DNA from: Candidatus Hodarchaeota archaeon | GTDB lineage: Archaea; Asgardarchaeota; Lokiarchaeia; Sigyniarchaeales; SOKP01 | DNA length: 64,000 bases | Assembly: GCA_048886685.1 (NCBI GenBank) | Contig: JBHLKM010000010.1 | Location: forward strand, 55,946 to 119,945 | Direction of reading: 5' to 3' | In this document: positions 5,024-42,088 of the stretch, piece after piece | How positions within the stretch are numbered: the stretch's first letter is position 1 | How the letters are laid out: every line of letters starts with the position of its first letter | The notes under the pieces: generated by a model | Database searches by the model: none | Seen by the model: the letters and a program-made list of their open reading frames with translations, nothing else | What the model was told of the DNA's origin: nothing | Translations under genes and position numbers: made by a program

Positions 5024-5995
5024 TTATCTTTTTTTAATTTCAAAATTCACATCTTCAAATTTAGTATGGATTGTGCGATATATTTTAAATTTTCCATCTT
5101 CTACGGCATGATTTATAATTTCATCTATATCTGATTCATTCAAAAACTTCTCCGAAATAATTCTGTCAATCTTTGAATAAATGAGCTCCTTAATTTTATA
5201 TTTAAAACGATTTTTTTTCTTAGTATTAATCAATCCGGATAATTCGACATGCTCTTTATGATCCATTATGTTTTGAATAAGTTCATCAATACCCTCTCCG
5301 TTAATAGCATCTGTCATCGATACGGGAGGTCTCCAGCCACTTTGAAAGGTTGAATCGTCAAGCATCACTTCTATTTGTACAGCAATATCTTCTCCACCTA
5401 AATCTTTTTTATTAATATCATAAATATCCCCAATTTCTATAATTCCTGCTTTTTGCATTTGTATCGCATCGCCATACCCTGGGACTAGAACTATAACAAC
5501 TGAATAGGCTAAATTATAAATATCAAACTCTGCTTGACCAACTCCAACAGTTTCGATAATAATTAAATCCATTCCAAAAGCTTCATATAATAGACTAATG
5601 TCAAAGACAGCTCTTGAAATCCCTCCCTTATATCCTCTGGATGCAAGACTTCTCATAAACACATTTGGGTGTAAAGAGATATTTGTCATCCTGACTCGAT
5701 CTCCTAAAAATGCACCACCACTAAAAGGAGAGGTAGGATCTACACATATAATTCCAATTCGCTTTCCTTCATTCAATAAGGTTTTACAAATTGCTCCAGT
5801 TAAAGTACTTTTTCCAACACCAGGAGAACCAGTAATCCCAATAATATATGAATCATGTTTTATATCTTCAAAATGTCGAAAAATCTCATGAGCTTTATCG
5901 GGTTCATTTTCGATTATTGTAATTAATCTAGCTAAGGCGATTTTATCCCCGTTTCTGAAATTAGTAATTAAGTTTTCTAAATCATATTGCGTCAT
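5024..5995 (-). CDS. meaB: acyl-CoA mutase-associated GTPase MeaB/ArgK
   Basis: GITGSPGVGKST, VDPTSPFSGGAFLGDRVRM, ETVGVGQAE. Confidence 0.95.
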   Translation of the reverse strand: MTQYDLENLITNFRNGDKIALARLITIIENEPDKAHEIFRHFEDIKHDSYIIGITGSPGVGKSTLTGAICKTLLNEGKRIGIICVDPTSPFSGGAFLGDRVRMTNISLHPNVFMRSLASRGYKGGISRAVFDISLLYEAFGMDLIIIETVGVGQAEFDIYNLAYSVVIVLVPGYGDAIQMQKAGIIEIGDIYDINKKDLGGEDIAVQIEVMLDDSTFQSGWRPPVSMTDAINGEGIDELIQNIMDHKEHVELSGLINTKKKNRFKYKIKELIYSKIDRIISEKFLNESDIDEIINHAVEDGKFKIYRTIHTKFEDVNFEIKKR

Positions 5996-6139
5996 AGATT
6001 AAATGCATCCGTAGATTTAACTTAAATTCAATAGACAAAATTAATAACTAAAATTCTACATAGGTTTTTTATTTATTGATTTAAAACCATATCATTTAAC
6101 TAAAATCTACTAGGACGATTTTTTCTCTTAAAACGTCTT

Positions 6140-6973
6140 TTAAGTTATATCCACGCGCTCTTCGAACCTGGCAATCAACTGATCAATACGACTATAATCA
6201 TCTATAGAAATGGAAATTGCTCCGTTAGGGCATACCCTTTCACAACGACCGCATCCCATACAGTTCTCCTGATTAATCATTGTCTTGTTGTTTTTCATTT
6301 TCAATCCGTCATATATACAGAATTTAAAACATTTCCCACAACCTTCACAGAGATCTCTATTTACTCTTACTTCAACACCCTCCATTTTTTTTACAATTTT
6401 TTTATAATCGGATGGGCCATATTTCATTAGACTTACAACGCAGCAGCAAGAGCAACAGTGACAAATAGACATAAATTGATCCTCATACTCTAACACCCTA
6501 TATATAACCGCATCACCTCTCAGTTTTCCTAAATGGGGAACCAACCCATTTTCATATGCCAAACGTTCTCGCTCTAAAGCTTCCTCCTTCGTTGCAATAT
6601 ATGCTCCGGGCCACCTAGATAAATCCATGTTAGCGGCTCCTTTCCCCATCCAAGTACAGCCCAGATGAACATTGTGATTTTCACACTTATTGGCTATACG
6701 GCATGGACAATCCATCAAAACTATGGTCCCCGCCTTATTAATAAAGTATTCTGTGACTTTACGTGGCACTATCTGATCCTCATAAGTGCCCAAAGACAAA
6801 TTTACTGGTATAGGACTACCTGTTTGTTTTTCAAAATCATCATAATGGGCGCGTTTTCTGTATATACGTTTTATTATTGGCAATTTAGCAAACTTGGACA
6901 ATTTCTTCACTTTACTCGCCCACGGGGTGTTCATCTCGATTGGCTTTAAATCTAACTTTTGATTTCTCCTCAA
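6140..6973 (-). CDS. 4Fe-4S binding protein with Cys-rich domain
   Basis: CPCR...C and ICHCCSCCC, plus two C-terminal ferredoxin motifs. Confidence 0.85.
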   Translation of the reverse strand: MRRNQKLDLKPIEMNTPWASKVKKLSKFAKLPIIKRIYRKRAHYDDFEKQTGSPIPVNLSLGTYEDQIVPRKVTEYFINKAGTIVLMDCPCRIANKCENHNVHLGCTWMGKGAANMDLSRWPGAYIATKEEALERERLAYENGLVPHLGKLRGDAVIYRVLEYEDQFMSICHCCSCCCVVSLMKYGPSDYKKIVKKMEGVEVRVNRDLCEGCGKCFKFCIYDGLKMKNNKTMINQENCMGCGRCERVCPNGAISISIDDYSRIDQLIARFEERVDIT

Positions 6974-7179
6974 TTGATCACCTTCAATGACAATTTAAAT
7001 ATTAAATATGTAAATGATTATTAAAGCTTATTAAATAGAGGGAAAATAAAAACTCAAATCTGTTCTCTTTCATGGTTATGTAATCTTTCTTGGCTTGTTG
7101 CTCTATTAGGATCTTAAAGTCTTAAAGGAAATTATTCAAAGGTTCGTTAAAAGAAATTAAAGAAAAAAATGGATTTAAA

Positions 7180-7581
7180 CTATTTTTTTACATTAGTTTT
7201 TATAAATTCTACAATATCCGATGTCATTGACCCTGGACCATAAACATTTGCCACACCCATTTCTCTTAATTTTGGAAAATCTTTTGCAGGGATGACTCCT
7301 CCCAATAAAATCATAATGTTATCAATTACGCCTCGTTCTTTTAATAAATCAATAACTTCTTGAGTATACGCAAAGTGAGCTCCAGAATGAATGCTCAACC
7401 CAATAACATCTACATCTTCTTGGATTGCTGCCTCTACAATTTGTTGAACATTTTGGAAACCTCCGAAAATAAGTTCCATACCAGCATCTCTTATAGCTCT
7501 TGATACGACAATACCTCCGCGCCAATGCCCATCGATGCCAGGTTTTGACATTAGCACTCTAATTTTCTTTTCAGACATCAC
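7180..7581 (-). CDS. acyl-CoA mutase small subunit (cobalamin-binding)
   Basis: DGHWRG (DxHxxG), GLSIHSGAH, GGVIP. Confidence 0.93.
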   Translation of the reverse strand: MMSEKKIRVLMSKPGIDGHWRGGIVVSRAIRDAGMELIFGGFQNVQQIVEAAIQEDVDVIGLSIHSGAHFAYTQEVIDLLKERGVIDNIMILLGGVIPAKDFPKLREMGVANVYGPGSMTSDIVEFIKTNVKK

Positions 7582-7596
7582 ATATACACCTCAAAT

Positions 7597-9273
7597 TTAA
7601 ATTGCTAAAGGAGGTTCCCAAACACCCCAAATTTCTCTATAAATATCACAAATTTCGCCTACGGTGGCTCCTTCTTTTGTAGCTTCCATAACCACTGGCA
7701 TAACATTTTCTTCTTTCTCACATACATTTCGCAATTTATCTAAAATTTTCTCAAGTTTTGCATTATCTCTTCGAGCTTTAAGTTTTTCAATACGTCGAAC
7801 TTCAATGTCAATCGCTTCTTTATTTGTTCTAAATACATCAGTAACAGTGTCATAAGGAACTTCATATTTATTAACACCAAGCATGATCTCATCTCTTGCT
7901 TCAATACGCATCCTTCTCTTATGAAAGGCATCTCTCATTTCCTTATATAAGAATCCAGTTGAGAGTGCTTTATCGATTGTACCAACTTTTTGAATTTTAT
8001 CTATATATTTCCATACACGTTCTTCAACTTCATCGGTTAACCATTCAATAAAATATGAACCTGCGAGTGGATCAATAGTGTTATGAATTCTTGTTTCGTC
8101 CGATATAACTTGTTGAGTCCTTAAGGCAACTAAGGCAGCTTCTTCAGATGGTAAGCAAATAGCCTCGTCATAAGAATTAGTATGTAGTGATTGACATCCA
8201 CCTAAGTTTGCTTCCAAAGCTTGAATTGCTGTTCTTATTATATTTATCTTAGGTAATTGAGCTGTTAAAGAAGATCCTGCAGTTTGGACATGGAATCGAA
8301 AACCAAGGTTTCTCGGATCTTTAGCTTCATATTTATCTTTCATTAATTTGTACCATATTCTCCTTGCAGCTCTGAACTTTGCAATCTCTTCAAAGAAATC
8401 TTTATGTGCTGCTAAGTGAAAAGCAAGGCGACCCACAAAATCATCAACTTTCCATCCTCGGTCAATGAGGTTATCGATATGAGAGCAAGCACTAGCAAAA
8501 ACAAATCCAAGTTCTTGGACAGCATCAATCCCTCCTTCGCGATAATTATATCCTGTAAAATTGATCGGGTGCCACCTAGGAACATTTTTCATAGGAACAG
8601 TCCACTCAATGAAATCACATGCTAAGCGTAGAATGTGATTTGGAGGACAATTTTTATAGGGTATATAACCTACAGTCATGGTTAAAATGTCATTTTGTGT
8701 TGTACCTGTTAATTGGCTTATGTCATATCCTCGCATTTGTGCCATATTAAAGTACATAGCACATACCGGGGCAGAAGTGAATGGTTCAACGACTAATGCT
8801 ACGCTAATTTTGTCAATAGGTATATCTTCAGTTAAAGCAAAAAGACTATCTATGCAATACAGCGGTACTCCTGATGTTCCAACTTCTGGCGCTCCTTCTG
8901 GATTAGTAGGGTCAATCCCGTTAAATGTTAAGGCATCAACCGCTGCGCTAAACCCAGTTTCACCATTTTCATAAAGAAATTTCCATCTTTTATTGGTTTC
9001 TTCAGGAGTTCCATGACCTGAAAAAAGTCTCATTGTCCATAAACGCCCTCTATACATAGAGGGATAAACACCACGTGTATAAGGTGGTACTCCAGGAAAA
9101 CTGATATCACTTAAATATTCTTTATCTTTTATATCTAAAGGTGTATAAAGGTTCTTAATAGGAATCTCAGAGTCAGTTACAAATTTAACATCTCGTTCTT
9201 TCAGACTTTCATAAAGTTTTTCCCACTTTTCTTTTTCTTCTCTAATTTTTTCTAAATAGTTTTTATCAAACAA
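7597..9273 (-). CDS. B12-dependent acyl-CoA mutase large subunit (MCM family, atypical specificity residues)
   Basis: FPGVPPYTRGVYPSMYRGRLWTMR, FFEEIAKFRAARRIW, GGCQSLHTNSYDEA. Confidence 0.93.
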   Translation of the reverse strand: MFDKNYLEKIREEKEKWEKLYESLKERDVKFVTDSEIPIKNLYTPLDIKDKEYLSDISFPGVPPYTRGVYPSMYRGRLWTMRLFSGHGTPEETNKRWKFLYENGETGFSAAVDALTFNGIDPTNPEGAPEVGTSGVPLYCIDSLFALTEDIPIDKISVALVVEPFTSAPVCAMYFNMAQMRGYDISQLTGTTQNDILTMTVGYIPYKNCPPNHILRLACDFIEWTVPMKNVPRWHPINFTGYNYREGGIDAVQELGFVFASACSHIDNLIDRGWKVDDFVGRLAFHLAAHKDFFEEIAKFRAARRIWYKLMKDKYEAKDPRNLGFRFHVQTAGSSLTAQLPKINIIRTAIQALEANLGGCQSLHTNSYDEAICLPSEEAALVALRTQQVISDETRIHNTIDPLAGSYFIEWLTDEVEERVWKYIDKIQKVGTIDKALSTGFLYKEMRDAFHKRRMRIEARDEIMLGVNKYEVPYDTVTDVFRTNKEAIDIEVRRIEKLKARRDNAKLEKILDKLRNVCEKEENVMPVVMEATKEGATVGEICDIYREIWGVWEPPLAI

Positions 9274-9447: not shown

Positions 9448-10104
9448 TTAAGTTGTGGTTATAGCAAAATCAAAATCCTCAGATTTATAAATCCTTATTC
9501 CCCTATCTTCGAACCCTAGTGATTTTAAAAAATTATATGATGCGTAATTATCAATATAAACTTCACTTCTTAATTCAATGATATTTTTTTTCTTAAAAAA
9601 TTCCCAAGCCGTAAGAGCCATGATTTTTCCCAGACCTTTTCTTTGAAAACGAGGAATTACACCCATTGCAACGATTATACCATATTCCTGTTTTGGTCCT
9701 TCAAAATCTAATATCATAAAGCCAGCATCTATTCCATAAACTCTGGCTATAAATATGATTAAATCAGGATCGTTATATAAATCTTTAACGTCATCTATAG
9801 TTAAAGCTCGAAAAGGTTCATGAGAGGTTAACCAAGCTCTATTATACAAGGTTATAAGATTTTCGAGATCATTTTCTTTCACTTCTCTTATTTTTGCTTG
9901 AATAATATTGCGTTCTACATTTTCTTTTAAAACAGTTTCTACTTCTTTGGTTATCTTGTTTAATGGTAACACCATTTGGATATATTTCATTTCAAAATCG
10001 AGATTTTCTTCAATACTTTCTAACTTTTCTAAATTTTTTGGATTTTTCTCTAAAGTCAAGAAATAATTTCTGATTTTTCCTCTTCTATCTTTTTTATCAA
10101 TCAT
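9448..10104 (-). CDS. GNAT family N-acetyltransferase
   Basis: VIPRFQRKGLGK and NYASYNFLKSLGF. Confidence 0.88.
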   Translation of the reverse strand: MIDKKDRRGKIRNYFLTLEKNPKNLEKLESIEENLDFEMKYIQMVLPLNKITKEVETVLKENVERNIIQAKIREVKENDLENLITLYNRAWLTSHEPFRALTIDDVKDLYNDPDLIIFIARVYGIDAGFMILDFEGPKQEYGIIVAMGVIPRFQRKGLGKIMALTAWEFFKKKNIIELRSEVYIDNYASYNFLKSLGFEDRGIRIYKSEDFDFAITTT

Positions 10105-10422: not shown

Positions 10423-11067
10423 ATGGAAGAAGTAAAAAATATCGAAAAATTGGCAAATGAGAATACAAATATAGCTAAAGACGAAAAGCTAAAAGCACAA
10501 GAAATGAAAAATTTAACAAAGCAAGAAGTAAAAAGAGCAAAAGCTAGAGAAATGTTAGTTAAAAATGAGCTTGAATTAGCAAAGATAAGAGAAAGATTAG
10601 CTGAGAAAAGTAAAAAGTTAGTAGAAAGAAAAGAAAAGGTAAAAAATCTTCTAAAATTTTCTGAGGCTACTTTAAAAGCTGAATTAAATCAAGCACGATA
10701 TAATGAAAAAGTTGCAGAGATTCAAAAAGACGTGGCTGAAATTCAACGAAAGATTGCTAATATCGAAACTGAAATTGTGGAGGTTAAAGTAAAACTAGCA
10801 AACATGAAACTTGATGAAGCCAAGGAAAGAGATAATCTAGCAAAAAAGCAATTCGCTTATGTAAAATTAGTAAATAAAAATGCCCCTGGTGAGAAAGTAA
10901 CAAAAGCTGAGGAAGCATACCTTAAACAACAAAAAGAATTGACTAAATTTGAAACTGATGCTATGCAAATAAATAAAAATCTCGTGGAAAAACAGAATAA
11001 ATTAGCTAATCTTAAAAAAGAACAATCGGAAAAATTAGCAGAAAGGGAAAAAATTCGACCGGAATAA
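10423..11067 (+). CDS. all-helical coiled-coil protein, paralog 1 of 3
   Basis: Strong heptads (VAEIQKD VAEIQRK IANIETE); homologous to 14947..15615 and 17047..17703. Confidence 0.85.
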   Translation: MEEVKNIEKLANENTNIAKDEKLKAQEMKNLTKQEVKRAKAREMLVKNELELAKIRERLAEKSKKLVERKEKVKNLLKFSEATLKAELNQARYNEKVAEIQKDVAEIQRKIANIETEIVEVKVKLANMKLDEAKERDNLAKKQFAYVKLVNKNAPGEKVTKAEEAYLKQQKELTKFETDAMQINKNLVEKQNKLANLKKEQSEKLAEREKIRPE

Positions 11068-11175
11068 ATCCTCTCAAAAATAAATAGAAAATATTTGCTT
11101 TTATTTCTTTTCAAAATATTAAAAAAGAATAGAGTGGAAAAAAAAATTTAAAAATAAAAATTAGTTCTTTTTATA

Positions 11176-11823
11176 ATGAATCCCGAGGATATAATTGTAT
11201 ACATTAGTTTAGGAGTTTCAATTGCAGTTCTTTTCTTTATAATCTGGGATCACATAAAAGATGATAGAATTTTAGCGCGTGAGGTTCAAGATTTTTATAG
11301 CGACATAGAAATGTTAATTTTTACTAATCTCCAAGTGAAATATTACGAAATACTTCAAACAAATCAGGGAGAAATGAGTGAACAAGAATTAAAAACCTTA
11401 GTAAAAAATAAAAATCGAGATGTCATCCAAAAAAACTATTTAAATACTAAAATCAGTCAAAATTTTAAGTTATATGCCCAGTATCTTGGATTAACTTACA
11501 ATAAGGAAAATAATACCTATTTAAATGGAACTATCTATGTTTTAAAAATTGATGGTGCTCTATTAAAAAGAAACATCGAATCTAATACTGAAGAAATAAT
11601 AGTTACATTATATACAGAAATCAAACCTCAGCAGATTTCAGAATTAAATGTGTATCTTAATAGTCTACGCTTTTATTGGAAAAAAAAATATTATAAAGCT
11701 ATTTTTCGACCTCATTTACATCAAACAATAATTTTTGAGGATTTACTCGGATACATAAAACCTTTAGAACAAAAAAAGCAAAAATATTTCAGTATAGTTC
11801 GAAGAAAGGGAAGTAGAATATAA
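11176..11823 (+). CDS. hypothetical protein with N-terminal TM anchor
   Basis: 215-aa ORF with one hydrophobic N-terminal helix. Confidence 0.7.
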   Translation: MNPEDIIVYISLGVSIAVLFFIIWDHIKDDRILAREVQDFYSDIEMLIFTNLQVKYYEILQTNQGEMSEQELKTLVKNKNRDVIQKNYLNTKISQNFKLYAQYLGLTYNKENNTYLNGTIYVLKIDGALLKRNIESNTEEIIVTLYTEIKPQQISELNVYLNSLRFYWKKKYYKAIFRPHLHQTIIFEDLLGYIKPLEQKKQKYFSIVRRKGSRI

Positions 11824-11862
11824 TTATAAAAAACTCATAAAAAAGTTCTATCCCTATCACTC

Positions 11863-12786
11863 TTACGAAATTTTATATTTATAAATAATATCATAGACAT
11901 CCTTTGCAAATTTTGGTTGAAAATCAAATATTTTTTGTGAATTAAATGTTAATAACCGAAATTTAACAATTATGCTTATATTATAATCAACAATATCAAA
12001 TTGAGGTCTAATTCGAAAAATATTTTTTTGATTGTATAATTCACAAAGTTGTGTTATTTGATTAATAATTACTTGAAATCCTCTATAGGGAAAGGCCATT
12101 CTAAATGTATAGTTGAATAATTTTGGATAGTATTTAGTTGTAAAGGAGTCATAAGCTCTTTTTAAATTCTTTTCAAATTCCTTTCTAGATTTCAAATTAT
12201 CTACGAGTAAATCTTTAAATCCTATATCTTGAGGTGCTAAAATCTTACTCTTAAAATCATCAAAAGTCTTCTTTTTTCCTAATTTGATTGTATAATTGAC
12301 GATCTTAGACGTAAGAACTTGAGTATTTGATTTTTCAATTATTAGATTGTCAAATGTTTCTAATTTCACCTTGGTTAAATTTATTGCTCGAATTATTCCT
12401 TTATCTCCTTCAATTTTGACTAAATCATTGACTTCAAAAGGTCTTGTTAACATTATCACAATACCTGAAATAAAATTTGCAAATATACCACTTGAAGCAA
12501 AAGCTATTGCAGTACTAATTGCTCCTGTAAGTACAGCAGTGTAGGTTGGGTCAATTTTGGATATAATAGGAAAACCCTCAATGATAAAGAACACAATGAT
12601 AAGAACCGTAATGATTTTTAAAGCAAAATTAAAAATAATTTTTTGTTTTAAGGGTATTTTTGTACTTTTACTAAATATCCTAGAGATTAATTTGTTTAAT
12701 AAATATAAACTAATACCTATAATTAAGATGTATACCAATGCTTCCAAATCTGAACTAAAAATTGCCATTTTTAACTTTTCCCTCAT
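11863..12786 (-). CDS. mscS: MscS-family mechanosensitive channel
   Basis: 3 TM helices then FANFISGIVIMLTRPFEVNDLVKIEGDKGIIRAINLTKVKLETFDN. True start may be the ATG at 12768. Confidence 0.85.
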   Translation of the reverse strand: MREKLKMAIFSSDLEALVYILIIGISLYLLNKLISRIFSKSTKIPLKQKIIFNFALKIITVLIIVFFIIEGFPIISKIDPTYTAVLTGAISTAIAFASSGIFANFISGIVIMLTRPFEVNDLVKIEGDKGIIRAINLTKVKLETFDNLIIEKSNTQVLTSKIVNYTIKLGKKKTFDDFKSKILAPQDIGFKDLLVDNLKSRKEFEKNLKRAYDSFTTKYYPKLFNYTFRMAFPYRGFQVIINQITQLCELYNQKNIFRIRPQFDIVDYNISIIVKFRLLTFNSQKIFDFQPKFAKDVYDIIYKYKIS

Positions 12787-13672
12787 CTAATTCATTGACA
12801 TTCAAACCATAATTTATTTCCTTTTCATAGATCTTATAAAGAATTTCTTTTATTAACGGGTCAGTATAGGTTAAAATTAAGTTTGGATCCTCAGTAATAA
12901 TTTGTATTGTAATACTTAATCTGTTAACGATACCACTGACTGTATTATTAGCATAAAAATATGGTTTTGTTCCAAAAATGGGTTCATACTTCTTAAAAAT
13001 GGGATTTAATAGTGTTTCAAGTTTTTCTGAATCCACTGAACCTAGAAGTTCAACTACTTTAATGTATCGTGTTATTTTTTTTTCGTGTGTTATTATTTTT
13101 CTTAATTTTTTAACCACTTCTGAAATTTCTATTTTCGTTTCTTTTTTAATAGGGATATGAGTATAACGAACTACTGATGAATTGAAGGCAGTCTTATTTG
13201 GAATATAAGTAATAGATCCATCAAAATCTAATAATTTCAGATTATTTAACGTAATTTCCTTTACAATTCCATCAACTTGATTAATTCTGACTAAATCGCC
13301 AGCCTCGAAACCTTCTGATGATAAAAGCATCACTCCTGATGCGATATTGTTTATTATATTTTGAAAAGTGAGAGAGATTGCGACCACCAGAAAAGAAATA
13401 ATCGCTACAAAATAAATTGGTGAAATAATAAAAATTAACCAAAATGGAAATAATAGCCATATTACATTTATAATTATCATAATTATATAACGAATGAGAA
13501 GAGTTTTAATCAAACTCTGAAGTACATCAATTAAAATCGATCTTAGGACATAGGCTACCAAATTCAGAATTAATACATTTAATAATAATTGTTCAAATCC
13601 AAAAAAAATATAAATCACAACAATTGTGCTTATAAATATCATCCATACAGCGATTTTATAAACCCTTTTCAT
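12755..13672 (-). CDS. mscS: MscS-family mechanosensitive channel
   Basis: FQNIINNIASGVMLLSSEGFEAGDLVRINQVDGIVKEITL...DGSITYIPN. Confidence 0.85.
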   Translation of the reverse strand: MKRVYKIAVWMIFISTIVVIYIFFGFEQLLLNVLILNLVAYVLRSILIDVLQSLIKTLLIRYIIMIIINVIWLLFPFWLIFIISPIYFVAIISFLVVAISLTFQNIINNIASGVMLLSSEGFEAGDLVRINQVDGIVKEITLNNLKLLDFDGSITYIPNKTAFNSSVVRYTHIPIKKETKIEISEVVKKLRKIITHEKKITRYIKVVELLGSVDSEKLETLLNPIFKKYEPIFGTKPYFYANNTVSGIVNRLSITIQIITEDPNLILTYTDPLIKEILYKIYEKEINYGLNVNELDEGKVKNGNF

Positions 13673-13816
13673 AAGAAAGCCCTTATGTCTACTGAAATTA
13701 TAATTCTAAGCATTATATGTTTAATTTAAAAAAGATTAAGAAAACTTTAATTTTAAAAGTTGGCTTAATAAATTATTGTCATTAAAATTCTTTATTATTA
13801 ATTGATGTGAGATAAT

Positions 13817-14905
13817 TTGAAGAGGTTCTCTCGACCTTTCCGGAGGGTCATTCCTTCAATTAAAAGAAAAAAGAAGGTTGGTCTTCCACCGGGAACTCTT
13901 ATTTATACAGGCGATAAAAAAAAAGAAAAAACTAAAATTAAGGTAATAGAATATAGTGAGGATCATTATACTTACCAAGAATTTGCAGATATTCAGATTG
14001 ATCTTACTAAAATTGAAAAACCTTTAATTAAATGGATTGATATATATGGTCTTGCACAAGTAGAAGTTGTTGATGAAATTGGTCGTCAATTTAATCTACA
14101 TCCTCTTGTTTTAGAAGATATTTTAAGTCCAAATCAACGACCTAAACTAGAAGATTATGGAAATTATATTTTTGCAGTGTTTAATAAATTAAATTGGAAT
14201 GCTGAAGAAGAAGATTTTGAATATGAACAAGTCAGTTTGGTTTTAGGAGAAAATTATGTAATATCATTTCAAGAGCGTGATACTAGACTCTTTAATCCGA
14301 TTTATGAAAGAATTTATGTTCCAAAGGGAAGAGTTCGACTAATGGGTAGCGATTATTTATTTTATGTTTTAATCGATATTATCATTGATAATTATTTTGT
14401 TGTTTTGGAAAAAGTAGGTGAGGATATAGAAGATATTGAGGATATTTTAATAAAGAATCCTGAGCCTGAAACATTGCAACTTATCTACAAATTAAAAAGA
14501 TCTTCTATTGAGTTGAGGAAATCAATTTGGCCAATTAGGGAAGTGATTAATAAACTCCAACGTGAACAATCGAACCTGATTAGCAATGATTTGCAGATTT
14601 ATTTAAGAGATATATATGATCATATTTTCAGGATTAGTGATCTTTTGGAAAATTATCGGGATATTATTTTTGGAATGCTAGATATGTATCTTTCAAGTGT
14701 TAGTAATAAAATGAATGATATTATGAAAGTATTAACTATAATCTCTACAATTTTTATTCCACTATCATTTTTAGGGGGTTTTTATGGAATGAATTTTATC
14801 ATATATCAGAGTTTTCAATATGATTTGTTTATAATAGTCATAATTATGATGAGTTCTATCGCCACTTTGATGATTTTATTTTTCAAAAGGAAGAAATGGA
14901 TTTAG
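13817..14905 (+). CDS. corA: magnesium/cobalt transporter CorA
   Basis: GLPPGTLIYTG, LHPLVLEDI...QRPKLE, GFYGMNF. Confidence 0.96.
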   Translation: MKRFSRPFRRVIPSIKRKKKVGLPPGTLIYTGDKKKEKTKIKVIEYSEDHYTYQEFADIQIDLTKIEKPLIKWIDIYGLAQVEVVDEIGRQFNLHPLVLEDILSPNQRPKLEDYGNYIFAVFNKLNWNAEEEDFEYEQVSLVLGENYVISFQERDTRLFNPIYERIYVPKGRVRLMGSDYLFYVLIDIIIDNYFVVLEKVGEDIEDIEDILIKNPEPETLQLIYKLKRSSIELRKSIWPIREVINKLQREQSNLISNDLQIYLRDIYDHIFRISDLLENYRDIIFGMLDMYLSSVSNKMNDIMKVLTIISTIFIPLSFLGGFYGMNFIIYQSFQYDLFIIVIIMMSSIATLMILFFKRKKWI

Positions 14906-14946
14906 AAGTAAAATAAATTTAAAGATATAATTTCAGAGTTTAAAGT

Positions 14947-15615
14947 TCATTCTGCAAGAATGACTCCAGGATGTCTAATTTTTTCTCTTTCTGCGAGTTT
15001 CAATGAAAATTCCTTTTTTAAATCAGCTAGTTTATTTTCTTTTTTTCTTATATCCTTTTCCTTTTCTAAAACATCATTTTTCTGTTTTATTAGCCTCTTC
15101 TTTTCGGTTTCAGCATCATTTTTAACTTTTGAAAGTTTGTCTTCTGAGGTGGGTGCTTTAGCGATTTTTAAATATGCTAATTGCTTATTAGCTAATTTAT
15201 CTCGTGCTTTTGCAACATCTAATTTTTCATTGGCTAATTTTAATTTTTCCTCAGCAATTTGTCTTTCTACTAAAGCAATTTTTTTATTTATTTCAGCTAT
15301 TTCCTTTTGATTTTTTGCAATCTGTTCATTATAAATTGCATAATTATTTTCAATTTTAAGTTCTTCATCAGAAAAATCCAAAATATTTTTTTTTTTAATT
15401 TCAGATTTTGTCTTCGCTAAGATCCTTCTTTTTTCCGCAAGATCTTTTTTTTTCTCTGACAATTCAAATTCAATCTTAAACAATTTTTCTCTAGCTTTTG
15501 ATTTTTTAATTTCAACTATCGCATTAATTTTAGATTTTTGTGCGAGTTCTTTCTCATATTGTGCAATTTTAGAATTTTGCTGAGCTTCTTTCTCAATATT
15601 ACTTAAATTATTCAT
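14947..15615 (-). CDS. all-helical coiled-coil protein, paralog 2 of 3
   Basis: Shares KAREKL, YNEQIA, LANKQLAY and KLAEREKIR with the other two copies. Confidence 0.85.
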   Translation of the reverse strand: MNNLSNIEKEAQQNSKIAQYEKELAQKSKINAIVEIKKSKAREKLFKIEFELSEKKKDLAEKRRILAKTKSEIKKKNILDFSDEELKIENNYAIYNEQIAKNQKEIAEINKKIALVERQIAEEKLKLANEKLDVAKARDKLANKQLAYLKIAKAPTSEDKLSKVKNDAETEKKRLIKQKNDVLEKEKDIRKKENKLADLKKEFSLKLAEREKIRHPGVILAE

Positions 15616-15785
15616 TTCTTTTCACCATTAAAAATTGAGTTAATTAATTGAATTTAGTTACACTTTTTAGCTAGGAGAGATATTATTTAAATTTACCATA
15701 ATTTTTCATCTCTCAACTTTACTTTTTTTATAGAATTTTTAAAAAAATAAAACGATTTAGAATATCATATTTATAATTAAGATTT

Positions 15786-15977
15786 TTATCTTCTCTCCGT
15801 AATCACACTTATTTCTGAAATGGGAATATAAGAAATATTCTCATTTTTATCTTCTAATAATACAATGTCGAATTCATTTATAGATTTGATTCTTCCCGTA
15901 AATTCTTTACCAATCTCTTTAATGTAGATATAAACAAAATTATCGATTAAATCATCAAAAATTTTTCTTGGAATCAT
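15786..15977 (-). CDS. small Sm/LSm/Hfq-like fold protein
   Basis: 63 aa; LIDNFVYIYIKEIGKEFTGRIKSINEFDIVLL...YIPISEISVI fits the Sm1/Sm2 strand pattern; GAGAGGGG SD-like motif upstream. Confidence 0.65.
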   Translation of the reverse strand: MIPRKIFDDLIDNFVYIYIKEIGKEFTGRIKSINEFDIVLLEDKNENISYIPISEISVITERR

Positions 15978-16047
15978 TTTTCTTGATTTCCCCTCTCTTC
16001 TTTTATTTTAAATTTTATTCGATTAATTTATACATCAGTTTCTTTTT

Positions 16048-16617
16048 TTATTTAAGTTTAAATTCTAGATGAATTAAATTAGAGGTTTTTTCTTCCATTT
16101 TTGTTGTATATTCTAATTCAAAATATTCAGATAAAAGAGATTTATAAAATTTTGAGAAAAAATTTGAATAAACCTCATCCATCTCATGTAATCCCCTAAA
16201 AATAAAAGAATTTTCCCGAACTTGAATATCAAGGGTATTGAACCATTTTAATCCATTTTTACCGAAAAAATTAATTAAAAAAGCTGTATATGACTTAAAG
16301 GTATCTTCATTCATTGGTTTCGCCGTTGAGAATTTCATAATATCGGAAAATAGATCAGCAAAATCTTTTGCTATAATATCTAAAGATAAGTCGTCTAATT
16401 TGGATAGAATTTTGGAAAAAATTGACTTAGAAATCATAATCATTTCGTTAGTTTGATTCAACAATTCTAGATTAAGCCATTGTTCAATTGCATCTTTTGC
16501 AACTAGCCCCCGTGTCTTATTCTCTTGTTTAGCAATTAGTTCCAATTTATTTATTATTTCTTCTGAAAGCCTAAATCCGAGAAAATTGCTTTTTTTTTTG
16601 GGAGGTTTTTTCGTCAT
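16048..16617 (-). CDS. ribbon-helix-helix transcription regulator with C-terminal ligand-binding-like domain
   Basis: FLGFRLSEEIINKLELIAKQENKTRGLVAKDAIEQWL fits an RHH pattern. Confidence 0.75.
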   Translation of the reverse strand: MTKKPPKKKSNFLGFRLSEEIINKLELIAKQENKTRGLVAKDAIEQWLNLELLNQTNEMIMISKSIFSKILSKLDDLSLDIIAKDFADLFSDIMKFSTAKPMNEDTFKSYTAFLINFFGKNGLKWFNTLDIQVRENSFIFRGLHEMDEVYSNFFSKFYKSLLSEYFELEYTTKMEEKTSNLIHLEFKLK

Positions 16618-16668
16618 ATTAAGTTGTAGTTTATTATTTTAGTAAGACTCATCTTTTTATATCTAATA

Positions 16669-16744
16669 ATGATATCAAAGTATATAAAGTTGTCGGATCG
16701 ATTTATTGTTATCAAATGAAAACATTTAAATACTATGATATCAT
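16669..16744. promoter_or_regulatory. divergent promoters with three TGATATCA-type palindromic boxes (16670-77, 16707-14 imperfect, 16736-43)
   Basis: The outer boxes lie directly downstream of TATA-like TTTAAATA (+, 16725-32) and CTTTATATA (-, 16681-89). Confidence 0.65.
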
Positions 16745-16789
16745 TATGGAATTATAAAAATCAACTACTAAAATAAAGGAGAAAAAGAA

Positions 16790-16966
16790 ATGAAAGGAGA
16801 CCCCAAAACAAAGAAGAAGAAATATGATTATGAATATGATGATTACAATGATGAAGATGAGGAAGAGAATTTAGATGATGTTTATGAGGAAGAAGATAAC
16901 TGGGATTATGAGGAGGAAGATGAGGAGGAAGAAGAATTAGAGGTTTACGATGAAATTTACAGTTAG
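16790..16966 (+). CDS. 58-aa polyacidic, Tyr-rich peptide (not in ORF track)
   Basis: MKGDPKTKKKKYDYEYDDYNDEDEEENLDDVYEEEDNWDYEEEDEEEEELEVYDEIYS; SD AGGAGA at 16777-82; 30 of 58 residues are D/E. Confidence 0.75.
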   Translation: MKGDPKTKKKKYDYEYDDYNDEDEEENLDDVYEEEDNWDYEEEDEEEEELEVYDEIYS

Positions 16967-17046
16967 TCTAAATAAATTAGTAAATAGATATACTTTTTTA
17001 AAAAAAAAAGTTAGATCTAAAAAAAAAATAAAATGAGTTGATATAT

Positions 17047-17703
17047 ATGGAAGATACCAAAAGTATTGAAAAATTAGCTGAAGAAAATTCGAATCTAGCA
17101 AAGATGGAAAAAGATTCAGGAAGCGAACTGAAAACCTTAGCTAAACAAGTACTAAAAAGGGCTAAGGCTAGGGAGATGCTCGCTAAGAATGAAATAGAAT
17201 TAGCAAAAATACGAGAGAGATTAGCTGAGAAGACTAAGAAATTAGTTGAAAGGAAAGAAAAAGTAAAAAATCTTTTAAAATTTGGAGAGGAAATTTTAAA
17301 ATCAGAGAAAGCTCAAGCGATTTATAATGAAAAAGTTGCAGAAATTCAAACAAAGATTGCACAAACTCAGGAAAAGATTGCGAATGTTGAAACTGAAATA
17401 GCCGAAGTAAAAGTAAAACTTGCTAACAAAAAGGTTGATGAAGCTAAAGAAAGAGGGAATCTAGCAAATAAACAATTAGCTTATGTAAAATTAGTAAATA
17501 CTAAGGCTCCTGATGAAAAAATTTCTAAAGCAGAGGAAGCATATCTTAAGGTTCAGAAAGGTTTAAATAAACTTGAAACTGAAGCAATGGAAATAAATAA
17601 AAATATAGTTGAAAAACAGGATAAATTAGCTGATCTTAAGAAAGAGCTCTCAGAAAAATTAGCTCAGCGTGAAAAAGTCAGACCTACAGAAATGACTTCC
17701 TAA
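17047..17703 (+). CDS. all-helical coiled-coil protein, paralog 3 of 3
   Basis: Closely similar to 10423..11067 (KRAKAREMLAKNEIELAKIRERLAEK); the ATG at 17047 aligns with the paralog start. Confidence 0.85.
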   Translation: MEDTKSIEKLAEENSNLAKMEKDSGSELKTLAKQVLKRAKAREMLAKNEIELAKIRERLAEKTKKLVERKEKVKNLLKFGEEILKSEKAQAIYNEKVAEIQTKIAQTQEKIANVETEIAEVKVKLANKKVDEAKERGNLANKQLAYVKLVNTKAPDEKISKAEEAYLKVQKGLNKLETEAMEINKNIVEKQDKLADLKKELSEKLAQREKVRPTEMTS

Positions 17704-17820
17704 AAAACAATTTAAATAAGAAAACTAAGCCACTTTTTTTTTTAAATCTTTAATTTGAAATAATATCAAATAAGGACAGGATTTGGAAGAAGTATTGTTA
17801 ATATAATTGAAAATAAAAAG

Positions 17821-18033
17821 GTGGATCAACTTATAATGGTAAATTCCTTAATGTTTTTAATTTTACTTTCAATAGGGCTATTGATGTCTTCTTATATCAT
17901 AGGTATCATAGGAATTATCATAAATTTGAAAAAAAAACCATATCAATACTTCATATTCATTATTTTCATCAGCATTACTACGATTTTATTAATTCCTATA
18001 ATATTTGGATTAATCGAAGATTTAAATATATAA
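17821..18033 (+). CDS. small 2-TM membrane protein
   Basis: Two hydrophobic segments separated by KKKP. Confidence 0.5.
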   Translation: MDQLIMVNSLMFLILLSIGLLMSSYIIGIIGIIINLKKKPYQYFIFIIFISITTILLIPIIFGLIEDLNI

Positions 18034-18053
18034 TTTTTGTAATTTAAATAAAC

Positions 18054-18671
18054 CTATTTATGGCTTTTATGTATTTTTTCTTTTAATTGTTCGATTTCGA
18101 TATCTCTTTTTTCTATTTCATGGTTTAAATCTCCGCATTCAAGATCTAGATCATCTAATTTTTTAGTAATCTCTTTTATATCACCTTCAATTGTTCCTTC
18201 ATCAATTTCTTTTAATTCTTTACCAAATTTTTCAATTTTTTCTTTTTTTTCATGTAGTAATTCTTTTAAATGTTTAACTTCTTCTTCTTTTGCTATTATC
18301 TCTTGTATTATCAGTTCTCCTTCATCCATATCGATTAATTCTTCAATTCTGGTCATATATCTTTTTATTGCAGTCAATTTTAATTCTTTTTCTTCTTCTT
18401 TCTTGAAAAATAACGCAATATTACTATCTTCGCCAAGTTTCAAAATAATAATAGACATATCATCAGTTTCAAAAATTATTTTATTGTAATCTTCAAAAGT
18501 GAAATTGCAAATTTCATAAAGTCTTCTTATATGATTCAAGACTTCTGCTAAATTTTCACCCAATTTCGGTATATTAATATCTTGTTCAAATGTAGTTTGA
18601 AAAATAGTGCCATTATTATAAAACATAACAACATGTTTGACTTCAGGTAATGCTGCTTTTATTCGTTGCAC
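18054..18671 (-). CDS. roadblock/longin-like N-terminal domain fused to an acidic coiled coil
   Basis: VKHVVMFYNNGTIFQTTF...YNKIIFETDDMSIIILKLGEDSNIALFF fits roadblock/profilin-like topology; E/K-rich heptads follow. Confidence 0.65.
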   Translation of the reverse strand: MQRIKAALPEVKHVVMFYNNGTIFQTTFEQDINIPKLGENLAEVLNHIRRLYEICNFTFEDYNKIIFETDDMSIIILKLGEDSNIALFFKKEEEKELKLTAIKRYMTRIEELIDMDEGELIIQEIIAKEEEVKHLKELLHEKKEKIEKFGKELKEIDEGTIEGDIKEITKKLDDLDLECGDLNHEIEKRDIEIEQLKEKIHKSHK

Positions 18672-18693
18672 ATTTTTGAATACTATCTCTTGA

Positions 18694-20139
18694 TCACCTT
18701 ATTATGAGTTCTCTTAATTTATCACTAATAACATAAATATGAGATTTGATCTTTTTTGATCCAAATTTATTTAAAAAATATATTGCAACTAGAACTAAAC
18801 CTATAATCACTATAATAATAATCCCAATTTGAAAGTAAAAAATTAAAGAATAGTATAGTGAAAGAATAACTAATTGATAATTTGTTGTAATAAATCCTAA
18901 TTTGAAAAAGGATTTAAAAGTTATAGGACGCTTGTTCTGTTCAGCAATATTAACCACAAGAATATTATCACCAAGAGGAGTTAAATTATCCCCCCAATTA
19001 GCTCCAAATGCAAGACTGTAAAAGATTTGTTTTTTATTAATCAACGAAGCTGTTTCTGTCATAGTATCCGCGACTGGAATTAAAACCTTAGTGATTGGTA
19101 TATTATCAATACAACTACTTAAATAAGCTGAAAACCAAAGAATTAAGAAAAGTTGGAAAAAGAGATTAGTTCCTCCAATATTTTGTACAAAAATCCCTAT
19201 AACCTCAGTTGCCCCTGTCACCTCAAGACCTCCAACAATTATAAAAATCCCCAAAAGATAGAAAATCAACTCAAAATCTATTTTGTTTATAATATCTTTT
19301 GGTTCTAATCTAGTTATAATGATCAAAATAATAGCAATAATTAAAGCAATTATATCCGGAGAAAGAAGTGAAGAAGGAACGATTGTGAGTAATACCAATA
19401 AAACTATCAAAGATACTAATGACTGATATAAAAGCCTTTTATTTTGAACAACATTCCATACGTCAAATTCTTTTAATGCTTTTTGCCCCTCTTCTGGTAT
19501 TACTAACTCTCTTTTATAAATTAGAATGAAAAATAAGAGAGTAAATAAGAAAATTATAAAAGAAATTAATCCAACATTAATGAAGAATTCTATAAATTCT
19601 ATTCTTGCTGATGTTGTGATTAAAATATTTGGAATTGAAGAAATTGAAAAAATTGTACCACCTATATTTACTAATATTGCTTGAGTAAGAATATAGGGGG
19701 AAGGATTTATATTTAAAATTCTTGAAACTGTAATAGTAAGTGGAATTATAATGATAACTGTTAAAATATTGTTTAAAATTGCTGAAATGAGCACTGTTAC
19801 GCAACAAAATATAATCATTAAACGAATAGGTTTTCCTTTTGAGAGTTTAATTAGTTTTCCAGCAATAAATTGAAATGTGCCTGCTTCATGTGAGATTTGT
19901 ACAATCATCATCATTCCTATAATTAGAATTATGGAATGTAAATTTACAAAATCATCATCCTTAGAACTAAATAGAAGATCGACAATTATAGAAAAATCTA
20001 AATCTTCAAGAAAAATTAAAACAAAATAGGTGATAATTGCCCCTAATAATGATGCGATTGCTCTATTCATCTTTTCTGTTATAATAAAAAAAATAACTCC
20101 GATAAAACTTGAAAGTATTATGATAACACTTAGCAACAT
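18694..20139 (-). CDS. ArsB/NhaD/SLC13-type (IT superfamily) ion transporter
   Basis: Multi-TM protein; SAILNNILTV, IDFELIFYLLGIFIIVGGLE, SSCIDNIP. Confidence 0.85.
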   Translation of the reverse strand: MLLSVIIILSSFIGVIFFIITEKMNRAIASLLGAIITYFVLIFLEDLDFSIIVDLLFSSKDDDFVNLHSIILIIGMMMIVQISHEAGTFQFIAGKLIKLSKGKPIRLMIIFCCVTVLISAILNNILTVIIIIPLTITVSRILNINPSPYILTQAILVNIGGTIFSISSIPNILITTSARIEFIEFFINVGLISFIIFLFTLLFFILIYKRELVIPEEGQKALKEFDVWNVVQNKRLLYQSLVSLIVLLVLLTIVPSSLLSPDIIALIIAIILIIITRLEPKDIINKIDFELIFYLLGIFIIVGGLEVTGATEVIGIFVQNIGGTNLFFQLFLILWFSAYLSSCIDNIPITKVLIPVADTMTETASLINKKQIFYSLAFGANWGDNLTPLGDNILVVNIAEQNKRPITFKSFFKLGFITTNYQLVILSLYYSLIFYFQIGIIIIVIIGLVLVAIYFLNKFGSKKIKSHIYVISDKLRELIIR

Positions 20140-40315: not shown

Positions 40316-41149
40316 ATGAGCGAAATTTCATTTGCAGATGTTGAAGGAATAAAATTATCTTATAGAATTAAGGGTGAAGGATATCCCATCTTTCTTATAC
40401 ATGGTTTTGCAAAAAAAGAATTCTGGATTGGGCAAATAGATGCTTTATCCAAAGAGTTTAAAGTGATTTGGTTTGATAATCGCGGAGTAGGAGAATCTGA
40501 TCGTCCAAATATGCCTTATACAATGAAGATGTTAGTAGAAGATTTAAAAGATTTAATGGATTTACTTGATATTCAAAAAACTCATTTAATAGGTCATTCA
40601 CTTGGGAGTTTTATAGCTCAAAACTTTGCTTTAACATATCCTGAGCGTGTTAATAAATTAATACTACTAAGTACAAATCCAGGGTTACCAGATAAAAAAG
40701 GTGCTGATATATTTAAAGACAATCAAATTGCTCTATATGAAGCAAGGATTGCAGATCCTATTGCTGGTTTCTATACCAAGATGAAAGTAAGATTTACACG
40801 CGAATTTCTCAAAATGATGAGAGCTGATCCTACGAAAAAATTACATGGAATCTTTTCTGCTGAAGATCTTATTAAGAGTGAAAATGAGAATCCTTGGACT
40901 CCTCAAGATATTATTAATCATTCTAATGCATTAGCAGATCATAATACATTAGATAACCTCCATAAAATTAAGCATGAAACCTTGATAATTGCTGGAGAAA
41001 AGGATAGATTAACCCCAAAAATATCAAATGAACAAGTTCATAAAAAAATTCCTAATAGTGAACTTAGAATTGTTTCAGGAGGGCATTATTTTCCATTAGA
41101 AAACGCACCTGAGGTAAACAAAATAATTTTCGATTTTCTTAAAAGCTAA
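40316..41149 (+). CDS. alpha/beta hydrolase (tandem copy 1)
   Basis: DNRGVGES, GHSLG, GEKD, GH. Confidence 0.92.
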   Translation: MSEISFADVEGIKLSYRIKGEGYPIFLIHGFAKKEFWIGQIDALSKEFKVIWFDNRGVGESDRPNMPYTMKMLVEDLKDLMDLLDIQKTHLIGHSLGSFIAQNFALTYPERVNKLILLSTNPGLPDKKGADIFKDNQIALYEARIADPIAGFYTKMKVRFTREFLKMMRADPTKKLHGIFSAEDLIKSENENPWTPQDIINHSNALADHNTLDNLHKIKHETLIIAGEKDRLTPKISNEQVHKKIPNSELRIVSGGHYFPLENAPEVNKIIFDFLKS

Positions 41150-41166
41150 GATACGTTCTACTTATT

Positions 41167-42012
41167 ATGACAGAAGCTTTTGCTGATGTTAATGGTATAA
41201 CAGTTTGCTATGGTATTCAAGGTGAAGGTTTTCCATTAATCCTTCTTCACGGTTTTGGCTCCAAAAAAGAGAGCTTTATGGCACAAATCCCTGATTTATC
41301 TAGGCATTTCCAGGTTATCACGGTTGATATGAGGGGGGCTGGAAAGAGCTCAAGACCAAATTACCATTATTCTATGGACATGTTTGCTGATGATGTTAAA
41401 GGATTGATGGACTACCTAAAGATTGATACGGCTCATTTAGTTGGTTTTTCATTTGGGGGGATGATAGCTCAAAAGTTTGTCTTGAAATATCCTTTACATG
41501 TAGCTAAACTTATTCTTATCAATACATCAGGTTTACTGAAGATACCCAAGGAGTATGATCCGGAACCTTATATTCAATTCAGAATAAAAAGTTTAGAATT
41601 AATTAAACATGATCCTGTTAAAGCTTTTTGGCAGAGTACTCAATTAGGATTTCCTCAAGAATTTAGGGAAGAAATGTTGGCAAATCAGAAGAAGAAATTC
41701 TACGGATTATGGTCTGTGGAAGATCTTATTGATTATTACACAACTGATCCTCCTACACCTCAAGACATTCGAAATATTGCATATTCTTTCAAAACTTTAA
41801 ATTTTTCTAATAGACTACATGAAATTAAGAATGAAACTCTATTACTTACAGCATCTCATGACGTTCTCGTTCCTAAAGAAAGAATGTTTGAGATGCACAA
41901 GTTATTAACAAACAGTATGGTTAAAGTAATAGAAAAAGCAGGTCATGAATCTCCAAAATCTAATGCACCGGAAGTAAATCAAGCCATCATTGAGTTTTTA
42001 GGAAGAAATTAA
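41167..42012 (+). CDS. alpha/beta hydrolase (tandem copy 2)
   Basis: HGFG, GFSFGG, AGH. Confidence 0.92.
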   Translation: MTEAFADVNGITVCYGIQGEGFPLILLHGFGSKKESFMAQIPDLSRHFQVITVDMRGAGKSSRPNYHYSMDMFADDVKGLMDYLKIDTAHLVGFSFGGMIAQKFVLKYPLHVAKLILINTSGLLKIPKEYDPEPYIQFRIKSLELIKHDPVKAFWQSTQLGFPQEFREEMLANQKKKFYGLWSVEDLIDYYTTDPPTPQDIRNIAYSFKTLNFSNRLHEIKNETLLLTASHDVLVPKERMFEMHKLLTNSMVKVIEKAGHESPKSNAPEVNQAIIEFLGRN

Positions 42013-42088
42013 CGCAAAATTATTAATTACTAAATTATTAGTAAATTTATCACTATTAGAAAATTTTAATCTTGGTTTATGGGGATTA

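Follow-up and report, generated by a model that had tools for sequence, protein, structure and literature searches.

Why would three copies of a small helical protein without an assigned function sit beside tension-gated channels and a magnesium transporter in an Asgard archaeon? The genes in question lie at positions 10423-20139 of a 64-kb stretch of a Candidatus Hodarchaeota genome, which we refer to as the window. The original prediction had read them as one module in which soluble coiled-coil scaffolds organize the membrane around channels, or in which divalent cations are stored. Open reading frame, profile and structure searches confirmed all claimed components at their place in the window. 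In order, these are paralog A (+), a 215-aa membrane protein (+), MscS1 (−), MscS2 (−), CorA (+), paralog B (−), an Sm-like protein (−), a ribbon-helix-helix (RHH) regulator (−), an acidic peptide (+), paralog C (+), a 70-aa protein with two transmembrane segments (+), a roadblock fusion (−) and a permease (−). The genes of the proposed module are present, but they form five alternating strand blocks and no single operon; there are therefore at least 5 transcription units. The computations gave the paralogs a three-helix fold and an antiparallel dimer with free basic tips, showed that their gene linkage is conserved and placed the operator at the RHH arm only. We tentatively favor, at somewhat less than an even chance, the reading that the locus is an accessory envelope and ion-stress island of Lokiarchaeia, with a BAR-like membrane scaffold beside transporters.

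Paralogs A (10423-11067, + strand, 214 aa), B (14947-15615, − strand, 222 aa) and C (17047-17703, + strand, 218 aa from the ATG or 221 aa from a TTG at 17038) had been called copies of one protein of about 215 aa, and their pairwise identities of 47-73% bear this out. A and C are 73% identical, while B, which belongs to a separate clade, is 47-48% identical to A. Sequence and profile searches gave no Pfam, NCBIfam or PDB match for them, an Atlas feature search with paralog A returned nothing above 0.77, and a literature search, missing most subscription papers, found no report of the family or the cluster. The homologs bear Lokiarchaeota or Promethearchaeota names. In one large Lokiarchaeia family, the organism's own, about two thirds of the members (45 of 67 genomes) carry one to five copies, and a few copies occur in three other Lokiarchaeia families; the paralogs are absent from all other families sampled across the phylum. 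Judged by these comparisons, they constitute an orphan, undescribed and lineage-restricted family. Its members are basic (mean net charge +10, pI 9.3-9.6), and their alignment contains no conserved His, Cys or Asp site. In a quick IQ-TREE phylogeny, read for clades only, the B clade (27 rows, support 100) stands apart from the A/C clade. B genes lie mostly at the 3' end of corA and A/C genes are placed behind the RHH promoter, paralog A being a recent duplicate from the C clade.

An AlphaFold2 model of paralog A, built with 50 homologs, reached a predicted local distance difference test (pLDDT) score of 96 and consists of three unbroken helices spanning residues 2-72, 81-151 and 156-209. The supposed coiled-coil scaffolds are helical, as claimed, but they are three-helix bundles and not simple coiled coils. 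The ten best Foldseek matches are all BAR-superfamily chains, including SNX1 (E 4.8e-4), and the eisosome proteins Lsp1 and Pil1 match with template-modeling scores (TM-scores) of 0.59-0.60. In a VIA search of 48,161 PDB chains, which is independent of Foldseek, BAR domains hold the top seven places: arfaptin (Z 13.5), the SNX1-SNX5 chain (12.9), ACAP4 (12.1), FAM92A1 (11.8), srGAP2 (11.7), Lsp1 (11.6) and APPL1 (11.5). The BAR matches are collinear over most of the chain. The arfaptin superposition aligns 191 residues with a root-mean-square deviation (rmsd) of 4.8; SNX1-SNX5 and Lsp1 both superpose with an rmsd of 3.5, over 181 and 171 residues, respectively. Overall, the BAR matches reach Z values of 10-13.5 and TM-scores up to 0.60.

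The homodimer was predicted to be antiparallel, with a pLDDT of 91 and an ipSAE of 0.84, compared with 0.00 for the best of three controls, and the runs agree on at least 97% of contacts. In calibration, the mark applied here was reached by 20 of 30 solved pairs and by 1 of 23 solved single chains. Helix 1 contributes to the predicted interface together with the beginning of helix 2 and the last part of helix 3; the two-fold axis passes near residues 43-45 and 202, and the stretch 94-176 remains free. An interface of this composition with free tips is the arrangement of BAR domains. Charge peaks at the tip between helices 2 and 3 (residues 136-162, +4.2) and along helix 1 (residues 21-76, +6.2). 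On these models the paralogs are predicted to be built like a BAR domain and to form a BAR-like dimer; common BAR ancestry is unproven. The membrane scaffold originally proposed has thereby gained, by prediction, a BAR-like fold and dimer with Lsp1 and Pil1 among its top matches.

By definition, BAR domains are coiled-coil dimers whose subunits run antiparallel and whose curved face is basic (PMC8687657). With the superfamily (SNX1/SNX5, arfaptin, ACAP4, FAM92A, endophilin, amphiphysin) the paralogs share an antiparallel three-helix bundle of about 210 aa and, as predicted, a dimer with basic tips whose subunits pair antiparallel through helix 1 and the final part of helix 3. They differ from it in showing no sequence similarity, in their unbroken, alanine-heptad helices, and in having neither a PX, PH or SH3 partner domain nor an N-terminal hydrophobic helix. 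Nothing corresponds to helix H0 of N-BAR proteins in the paralogs, where helix 1 begins at residue 2 inside the bundle and the N-terminus is polar.

Asgard BAR proteins have been reported before, namely a Vps5-BAR protein (PMC10307638) and two BAR proteins recovered by co-immunoprecipitation with Lokiactin (PMC13716822). They have so far been inferred from profile matches and discussed as precursors of trafficking or actin coupling (PMC10307638, PMC13716822). Our searches also brought up a second Asgard BAR family that is Pfam-positive (PF03114/PF16746). Its single-domain form, of 210-220 aa with an aromatic-rich N-terminus, occurs in 11 genomes of the organism's own family (loci L140-L150), and a tandem form of about 450 aa (PF03114, E 1e-14) in another family (L072:1486-2862, L073:817-2172). 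An Hsp20-like gene lies beside two of the single copies and an ArsB-type permease beside one tandem copy; no member was found in the present genome. The paralogs belong to the same phylum and fold class as the described Asgard BAR proteins, and both families coexist in some genomes, but they show no profile similarity to the Pfam-positive family.

Several observations weigh against a BAR identity of the paralogs. Searches with Pfam BAR and Vps5 gave no match to their family, profile comparison with the Pfam-positive Asgard family gave a probability of 0.2-0.5%, and the N-terminus is poor in aromatic residues (0.3 per 15 residues, compared with 1.3 in that family). A Z of about 13 can be reached between unrelated helical bundles, and two uncharacterized bacterial Atlas clusters fit better (TM-scores 0.81 and 0.73) than Pil1 and SNX chains (0.60-0.62). 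The dimer score may stem from likeness to solved BAR dimers, and the interface columns are not significantly more conserved than the rest (p 0.11). Finally, alanine or another small residue occupies one heptad position in 65-71% of the columns of helices 1 and 2, a pattern resembling chemoreceptor hairpins; such hairpins match residues 1-157 with a Z of 11.3, and the bacterial cluster with a TM-score of 0.81 has some MCPsignal members. The missing sequence match is still compatible with remote BAR homology, because identity to BAR structures is only 8-18%.

The alanine heptads and the chemoreceptor-like matches would suit a convergent BAR likeness, in which the paralogs are soluble three-helix dimers that bind no lipid and serve as a proteostasis holdase or adaptor. 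Their partners would be Hsp20 and the acidic peptide, whose C-terminus is of the hydrophobic-tyrosine-X (HbYX) type; the operator arm indeed encodes this peptide, joined in several genomes by Hsp20 or dihydrolipoyl dehydrogenase. Yet among the leading hits of both PDB searches, matches that span all three helices are confined to BAR domains, the predicted dimer geometry is of the BAR type, and the most constant neighbors are membrane proteins. We consider convergence unlikely, though less so than the other rival readings.

Two other identities were considered. PspA/ESCRT-III proteins gave no profile match and, with a long hairpin plus hinged short helices, appear to differ in layout from the three long helices modeled here; PF04012 (PspA_IM30) has no match in this genome or in the paralog family, and ESCRT-III chains do not appear in the top 50 of the fold searches, although absence from that list is not exclusion. 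MscS_porin matched 2 of 50 members at E 5e-4, below the cut-off, which we attribute to coiled-coil noise; it was also rejected because the domain is periplasmic, whereas the paralogs have no signal or transmembrane segment.

Whether the paralogs belong with the transporters was judged from the neighbors lying no more than 6 kb from a family copy in the 60 genomes that have the family, half of which come from one genus; the counts are lower bounds, because many contigs are short. CorA is linked in 38 genomes from seven lineages (five genera and two other families), MscS and the RHH regulator in 31 each, the roadblock protein in 30, the permease in 26, and a DUF308/HdeD protein and the 215-aa membrane protein in 19 each. 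The flanking methylmalonyl-CoA mutase, by comparison, is linked in 7. Hsp20 and DUF308 recur near family genes. Gene order and flanks vary between genera, with 30 orders in 38 loci, a figure inflated by truncated contigs. Among ten genomes of the organism's own genus that lack the family, CorA is found in one and the roadblock protein in none, pointing to gain or loss of the island as a block. The proposed MscS/CorA linkage is conserved across genera, but 28 of the 83 copies flanked by 4 kb or more, mostly from divergent clades, have neither CorA nor MscS within 6 kb, and the transport core also occurs without the family. In G211, where no family member was found, the permease, roadblock protein, Hsp20, RHH regulator, MscS pair, DUF308 protein and CorA stand together; the core is likewise near-complete in G054 and G057 and partial in G189, G236 and G041. 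Because it is kept in genomes without the paralogs, the transport core is the wider-spread of the two. The neighborhood is conserved but loose, and the linkage is not obligatory. Such unlinked copies, which the original prediction had named as counting against the module, partly refute it.

Transcriptional control also divides the island. The regulator gene (16048-16617, − strand) was assigned to the RHH type through Atlas neighbors carrying RHH_1 (score 0.91-0.93), and its product has a C-terminal domain also found in thaumarchaeal regulators. The operator boxes noted beside it are real and conserved: in the 172 bp that separate the RHH gene from that of the acidic peptide, four 8-bp TG-W4-CA boxes, at 16670, 16707, 16717 and 16736, mark a divergent promoter and candidate RHH operator (16670-16743). 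Amid them lie two TATA-like elements, one for the minus arm (16681-16688) and one for the plus arm (16725-16732). A pair of boxes 2 nt apart is found in 29 of 31 homologous RHH promoters and in 13 of 899 other upstream regions. One such pair occurs among 37 corA upstream regions and one among 23 of mscS2, both from one locus, and none in the scored upstream regions of the permease and paralog B. Because the boxes are confined to the RHH/acidic-peptide promoter, the RHH protein most likely controls its own unit, with the Sm-like gene, and the divergent arm of acidic peptide, sometimes Hsp20, paralog C and microprotein. Its control does not appear to reach the channel genes. The idea of a single co-regulated module is accordingly not supported, the operator being found at the RHH promoter and not before CorA, MscS, permease or paralog B in the window, although the island genes could still share another regulator.

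These results bear on a tighter, eisosome-like machine, in which the paralogs co-polymerize into a furrow-forming lattice that holds MscS, CorA or the permease and tunes their gating with tension. In the fungal eisosome, the BAR-fold proteins Pil1 and Lsp1 are tied to tension buffering and transporters (PMC6723945, PMC9045820, PMC7183764), and eisosomes buffer membrane tension and trap transporters (PMC9045820, PMC7183764). The resemblance goes beyond the structural matches to Lsp1 and Pil1. Stand-alone paralogous BAR-fold proteins occur alongside small membrane proteins in both cases; as with Pil1 and Lsp1, the domains are kept as two deep paralog clades, our search for longer, fused versions having yielded none (weak evidence); and the B clade stays beside corA. 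The tie between paralogs and transporters is, by contrast, known here from genomes alone, and the Pil1 Pfam family matched none of 50 paralog-family members. The five strand blocks without a shared operator, the transport core found without the family and the many copies with no channel nearby speak against such a machine, and we regard it as quite unlikely.

Equally improbable, in our view, is a shared chromosomal hot spot, at which habitat-related accessory genes are gained and lost together with no mechanistic link. It would fit the block-like presence and absence within the genus, the many gene orders, the unrelated passengers (dihydrolipoyl dehydrogenase, HAD phosphatase, methyltransferase) and the missing common operator, but the CorA linkage persists in seven lineages, including two other families, despite wholly changed flanks. 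A store for divalent cations, with CorA importing Mg2+, the acidic peptide (about 52% D/E) chelating it and the paralogs forming a container, is scarcely credible even with one distant clade lying near VIT1-family genes, given basic paralogs without a conserved His/Cys/Asp site, a peptide whose acidic tract is free in length while its HbYX end is conserved, and no co-regulation of that peptide with corA.

The accessory envelope and ion-stress island that we prefer would consist of two layers. The older would be a transport core of the MscS pair, CorA and the ion transporter (IT) permease with its roadblock partner, often joined by a DUF308/HdeD protein. Added to it would be the soluble BAR-like proteins and the RHH-controlled arm of acidic HbYX peptide, sometimes Hsp20, paralog C and the microprotein with two transmembrane segments. 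Under tension, MscS channels let solutes out; CorA brings in Mg2+, ions or anions are the cargo of IT permeases, and Hsp20 holds unfolded proteins. The dimers, about 135-140 Å long as estimated from helix rise, may bind the cytoplasmic face of the membrane via the basic tips and helix 1, via the microprotein, or both, and would brace, shape or fold the membrane under osmotic or ionic stress. In parallel, MscS would release solutes while CorA and the permease take up or exchange ions; the BAR-like dimers would not be subunits of the channels. Through the acidic peptide, the RHH arm would be coupled to the proteasome or to some other partner that binds tails of the Cdc48 type.

The paralog family escapes BAR profiles, and its gene neighborhood points to membrane and ion stress. 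The paralogs are small and soluble and should express easily; they raise the question of a second archaeal BAR-type membrane shaper, whether homologous or convergent. The models and the recurring neighbors together hint that the island may be the archaeal equivalent of the membrane folds with which yeast buffers osmotic stress. A bolder version, which we think doubtful, sees a second, sequence-invisible Asgard BAR family forming an eisosome-like, tension-responsive coat, anchored by the microprotein and working with MscS, CorA and the IT permease, while the stand-alone HbYX peptide of the same arm tunes the proteasome. If true, a prokaryote would have a membrane reservoir based on BAR proteins, and osmotic protection, instead of trafficking, would become a candidate for the ancestral role of the BAR fold. 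Any claim on eukaryotic ancestry is limited, because the family is confined to part of Lokiarchaeia.

The acidic peptide (16790-16966, + strand, 58 aa) has a basic N-terminus, a D/E tract and an HbYX-type C-terminal tail. It is present at 25 of 31 RHH loci, with Tyr at position −2 in all 25 and an HbYX end, typically DEIYS, in 23; since the homologs share descent, the counts are not independent of one another. The D/E tract varies freely in length among homologs while the last residues are conserved. HbYX-type ends occur in 58 of 3562 proteins of this genome (1.6%), including Cdc48 with EELYR, and 7-residue HbYX peptides stimulate the archaeal 20S proteasome (PMC3493965). Because of this conserved C-terminus, a proteasome or Cdc48-cofactor ligand appears from the sequence to be a better reading of the peptide than the cation chelator first suggested, a role weakened further by the variable tract. 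It ends in hydrophobic-Tyr-X like the known HbYX proteasome ligands (PAN, Cdc48 and AMA tails) but differs from them in being a free, disordered chain of 58 aa without an ATPase or ring. The micropeptide is thus a separate candidate for a natural peptide regulator of the archaeal proteasome. Archaea usually have two or three proteasome-subunit genes; this genome, with a contamination of 8%, carries five full ones and one fragment (contigs C16, C14, C5, C13 and C6). Two other acidic HbYX tails were seen in it, at C25:30284-30931 (DDDLYS) and C21:18701-19501 (EDIYK).

Of the two small membrane proteins announced originally, one is the microprotein of 70 aa (17821-18033, + strand), whereas the other has 215 aa, with one N-terminal transmembrane segment and a soluble domain (11176-11823, + strand); it is conserved and has no Pfam family or PDB match. 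A microgene of 50-90 aa with two transmembrane segments lies directly 3' of 27 of 107 family genes, compared with 2 of 904 other genes, and such microgenes occur in two separate clades of the family with different microproteins. LiaH, a homolog of PspA, is tethered to the membrane by LiaI (PMC9239133), and by analogy the 70-aa protein is a candidate membrane anchor for paralog C. PspA/LiaH modules resemble the island in combining a soluble helical protein of about 220 aa, followed by a small membrane protein, with a dedicated regulator; the helix layout of the modeled paralogs does not look ESCRT-III-like, however, and the regulator here is an RHH protein.

The overlapping pair of MscS genes was correctly recognized. 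Channel 1 (11863-12786, − strand, 307 aa, about 3 transmembrane segments; PF00924, E 3.5e-14) and channel 2 (12755-13672, − strand, 305 aa, about 5 hydrophobic segments; PF00924, E 9.7e-15) overlap by 32 nt. Channel 1 is the second gene of a conserved tandem pair and channel 2 is divergent from corA; the two MscS genes and the CorA gene are the only close copies of each in this genome. Even family f2 (L137) retains two divergent MscS genes in tandem, a third MscS gene is often convergent with corA, and the pair could possibly form a heteromeric channel. The identity of the CorA Mg2+/Co2+ transporter (13817-14905, + strand) is secured by a TIGR00383 score of 272 bits against a cut-off of 201 and by a GMN motif. 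The MPEL loop motif is missing from it and from a few relatives, whereas most linked CorA proteins have it; judging from this loop, the selectivity of the present CorA may differ.

The ArsB/NhaD-type transporter proved to be an IT-superfamily permease of the CitMHS/ArsB/NhaD/P-protein type with about 12 transmembrane segments (18694-20139, − strand) that matches both CitMHS and ArsB. Its downstream partner (18054-18671, − strand) has a roadblock domain (residues about 1-115) fused to a C-terminal helical hairpin, consistent with the fusion described; structure search matched it to Asgard Roadblock3 (E 1.2e-7) and MglB (E 4.8e-7). The permease-roadblock pair is kept across the class. Compared between the window and loci L121, L122, L056 and L133, the partner is tailless in family f2 (about 130 aa), ends in a helical tail of about 90 aa here and reaches about 300 aa in total in f6 and f7. 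The stand-alone Sm fold is a weaker assignment: the seven best PDB matches of the probable Sm/Lsm-fold protein (15786-15977, − strand, 63 aa) are Lsm5/SmF chains at E 0.02-0.11, and its gene lies near the family only in the organism's own genus.

Other family copies occur in different surroundings. The fourth copy of this genome (C17:90424-91068) is unlinked to channels and lies near methyltransferase-like and nucleotidyltransferase-like genes, and four distant members on metagenome contigs have unrelated gene contexts. In a divergent clade (L058, L059, L066-L068), family genes are accompanied by a pair of VIT1 genes, regulators resembling ArsR and Lrp, a small GTPase and, in L059, CorA as well; PhoU/DUF47-like genes, which Pfam did not confirm, also lie nearby. 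In 8 genomes from four lineages, family genes have a dihydrolipoyl dehydrogenase gene as their immediate neighbor (L106, L040, L045, L046, L049, L113, L055). Decayed or truncated copies in or beside the island (G011:C9:72040-72198, G028:C9:36121-36225, L132:15565-15759) suggest frequent duplication and loss.

DNA contigs from three runs of one study, two of which are possibly the source of this DNA, span the stretch, and their comparison with it revealed no well-supported joint arguing for misassembly. Upstream of the island, a GNAT acetyltransferase gene (window 9448-10104) is divergent from paralog A; it lies near the paralog family in few genomes and has a 49% identical paralog on contig C3. 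The large and small subunits of methylmalonyl-CoA mutase and a MeaB-like GTPase (window 5024-9273) are unremarkable neighbors that border the island in some genomes. Farther downstream, the window carries three tandem alpha/beta-hydrolase-like paralogs of about 280 aa each (40316-42928).

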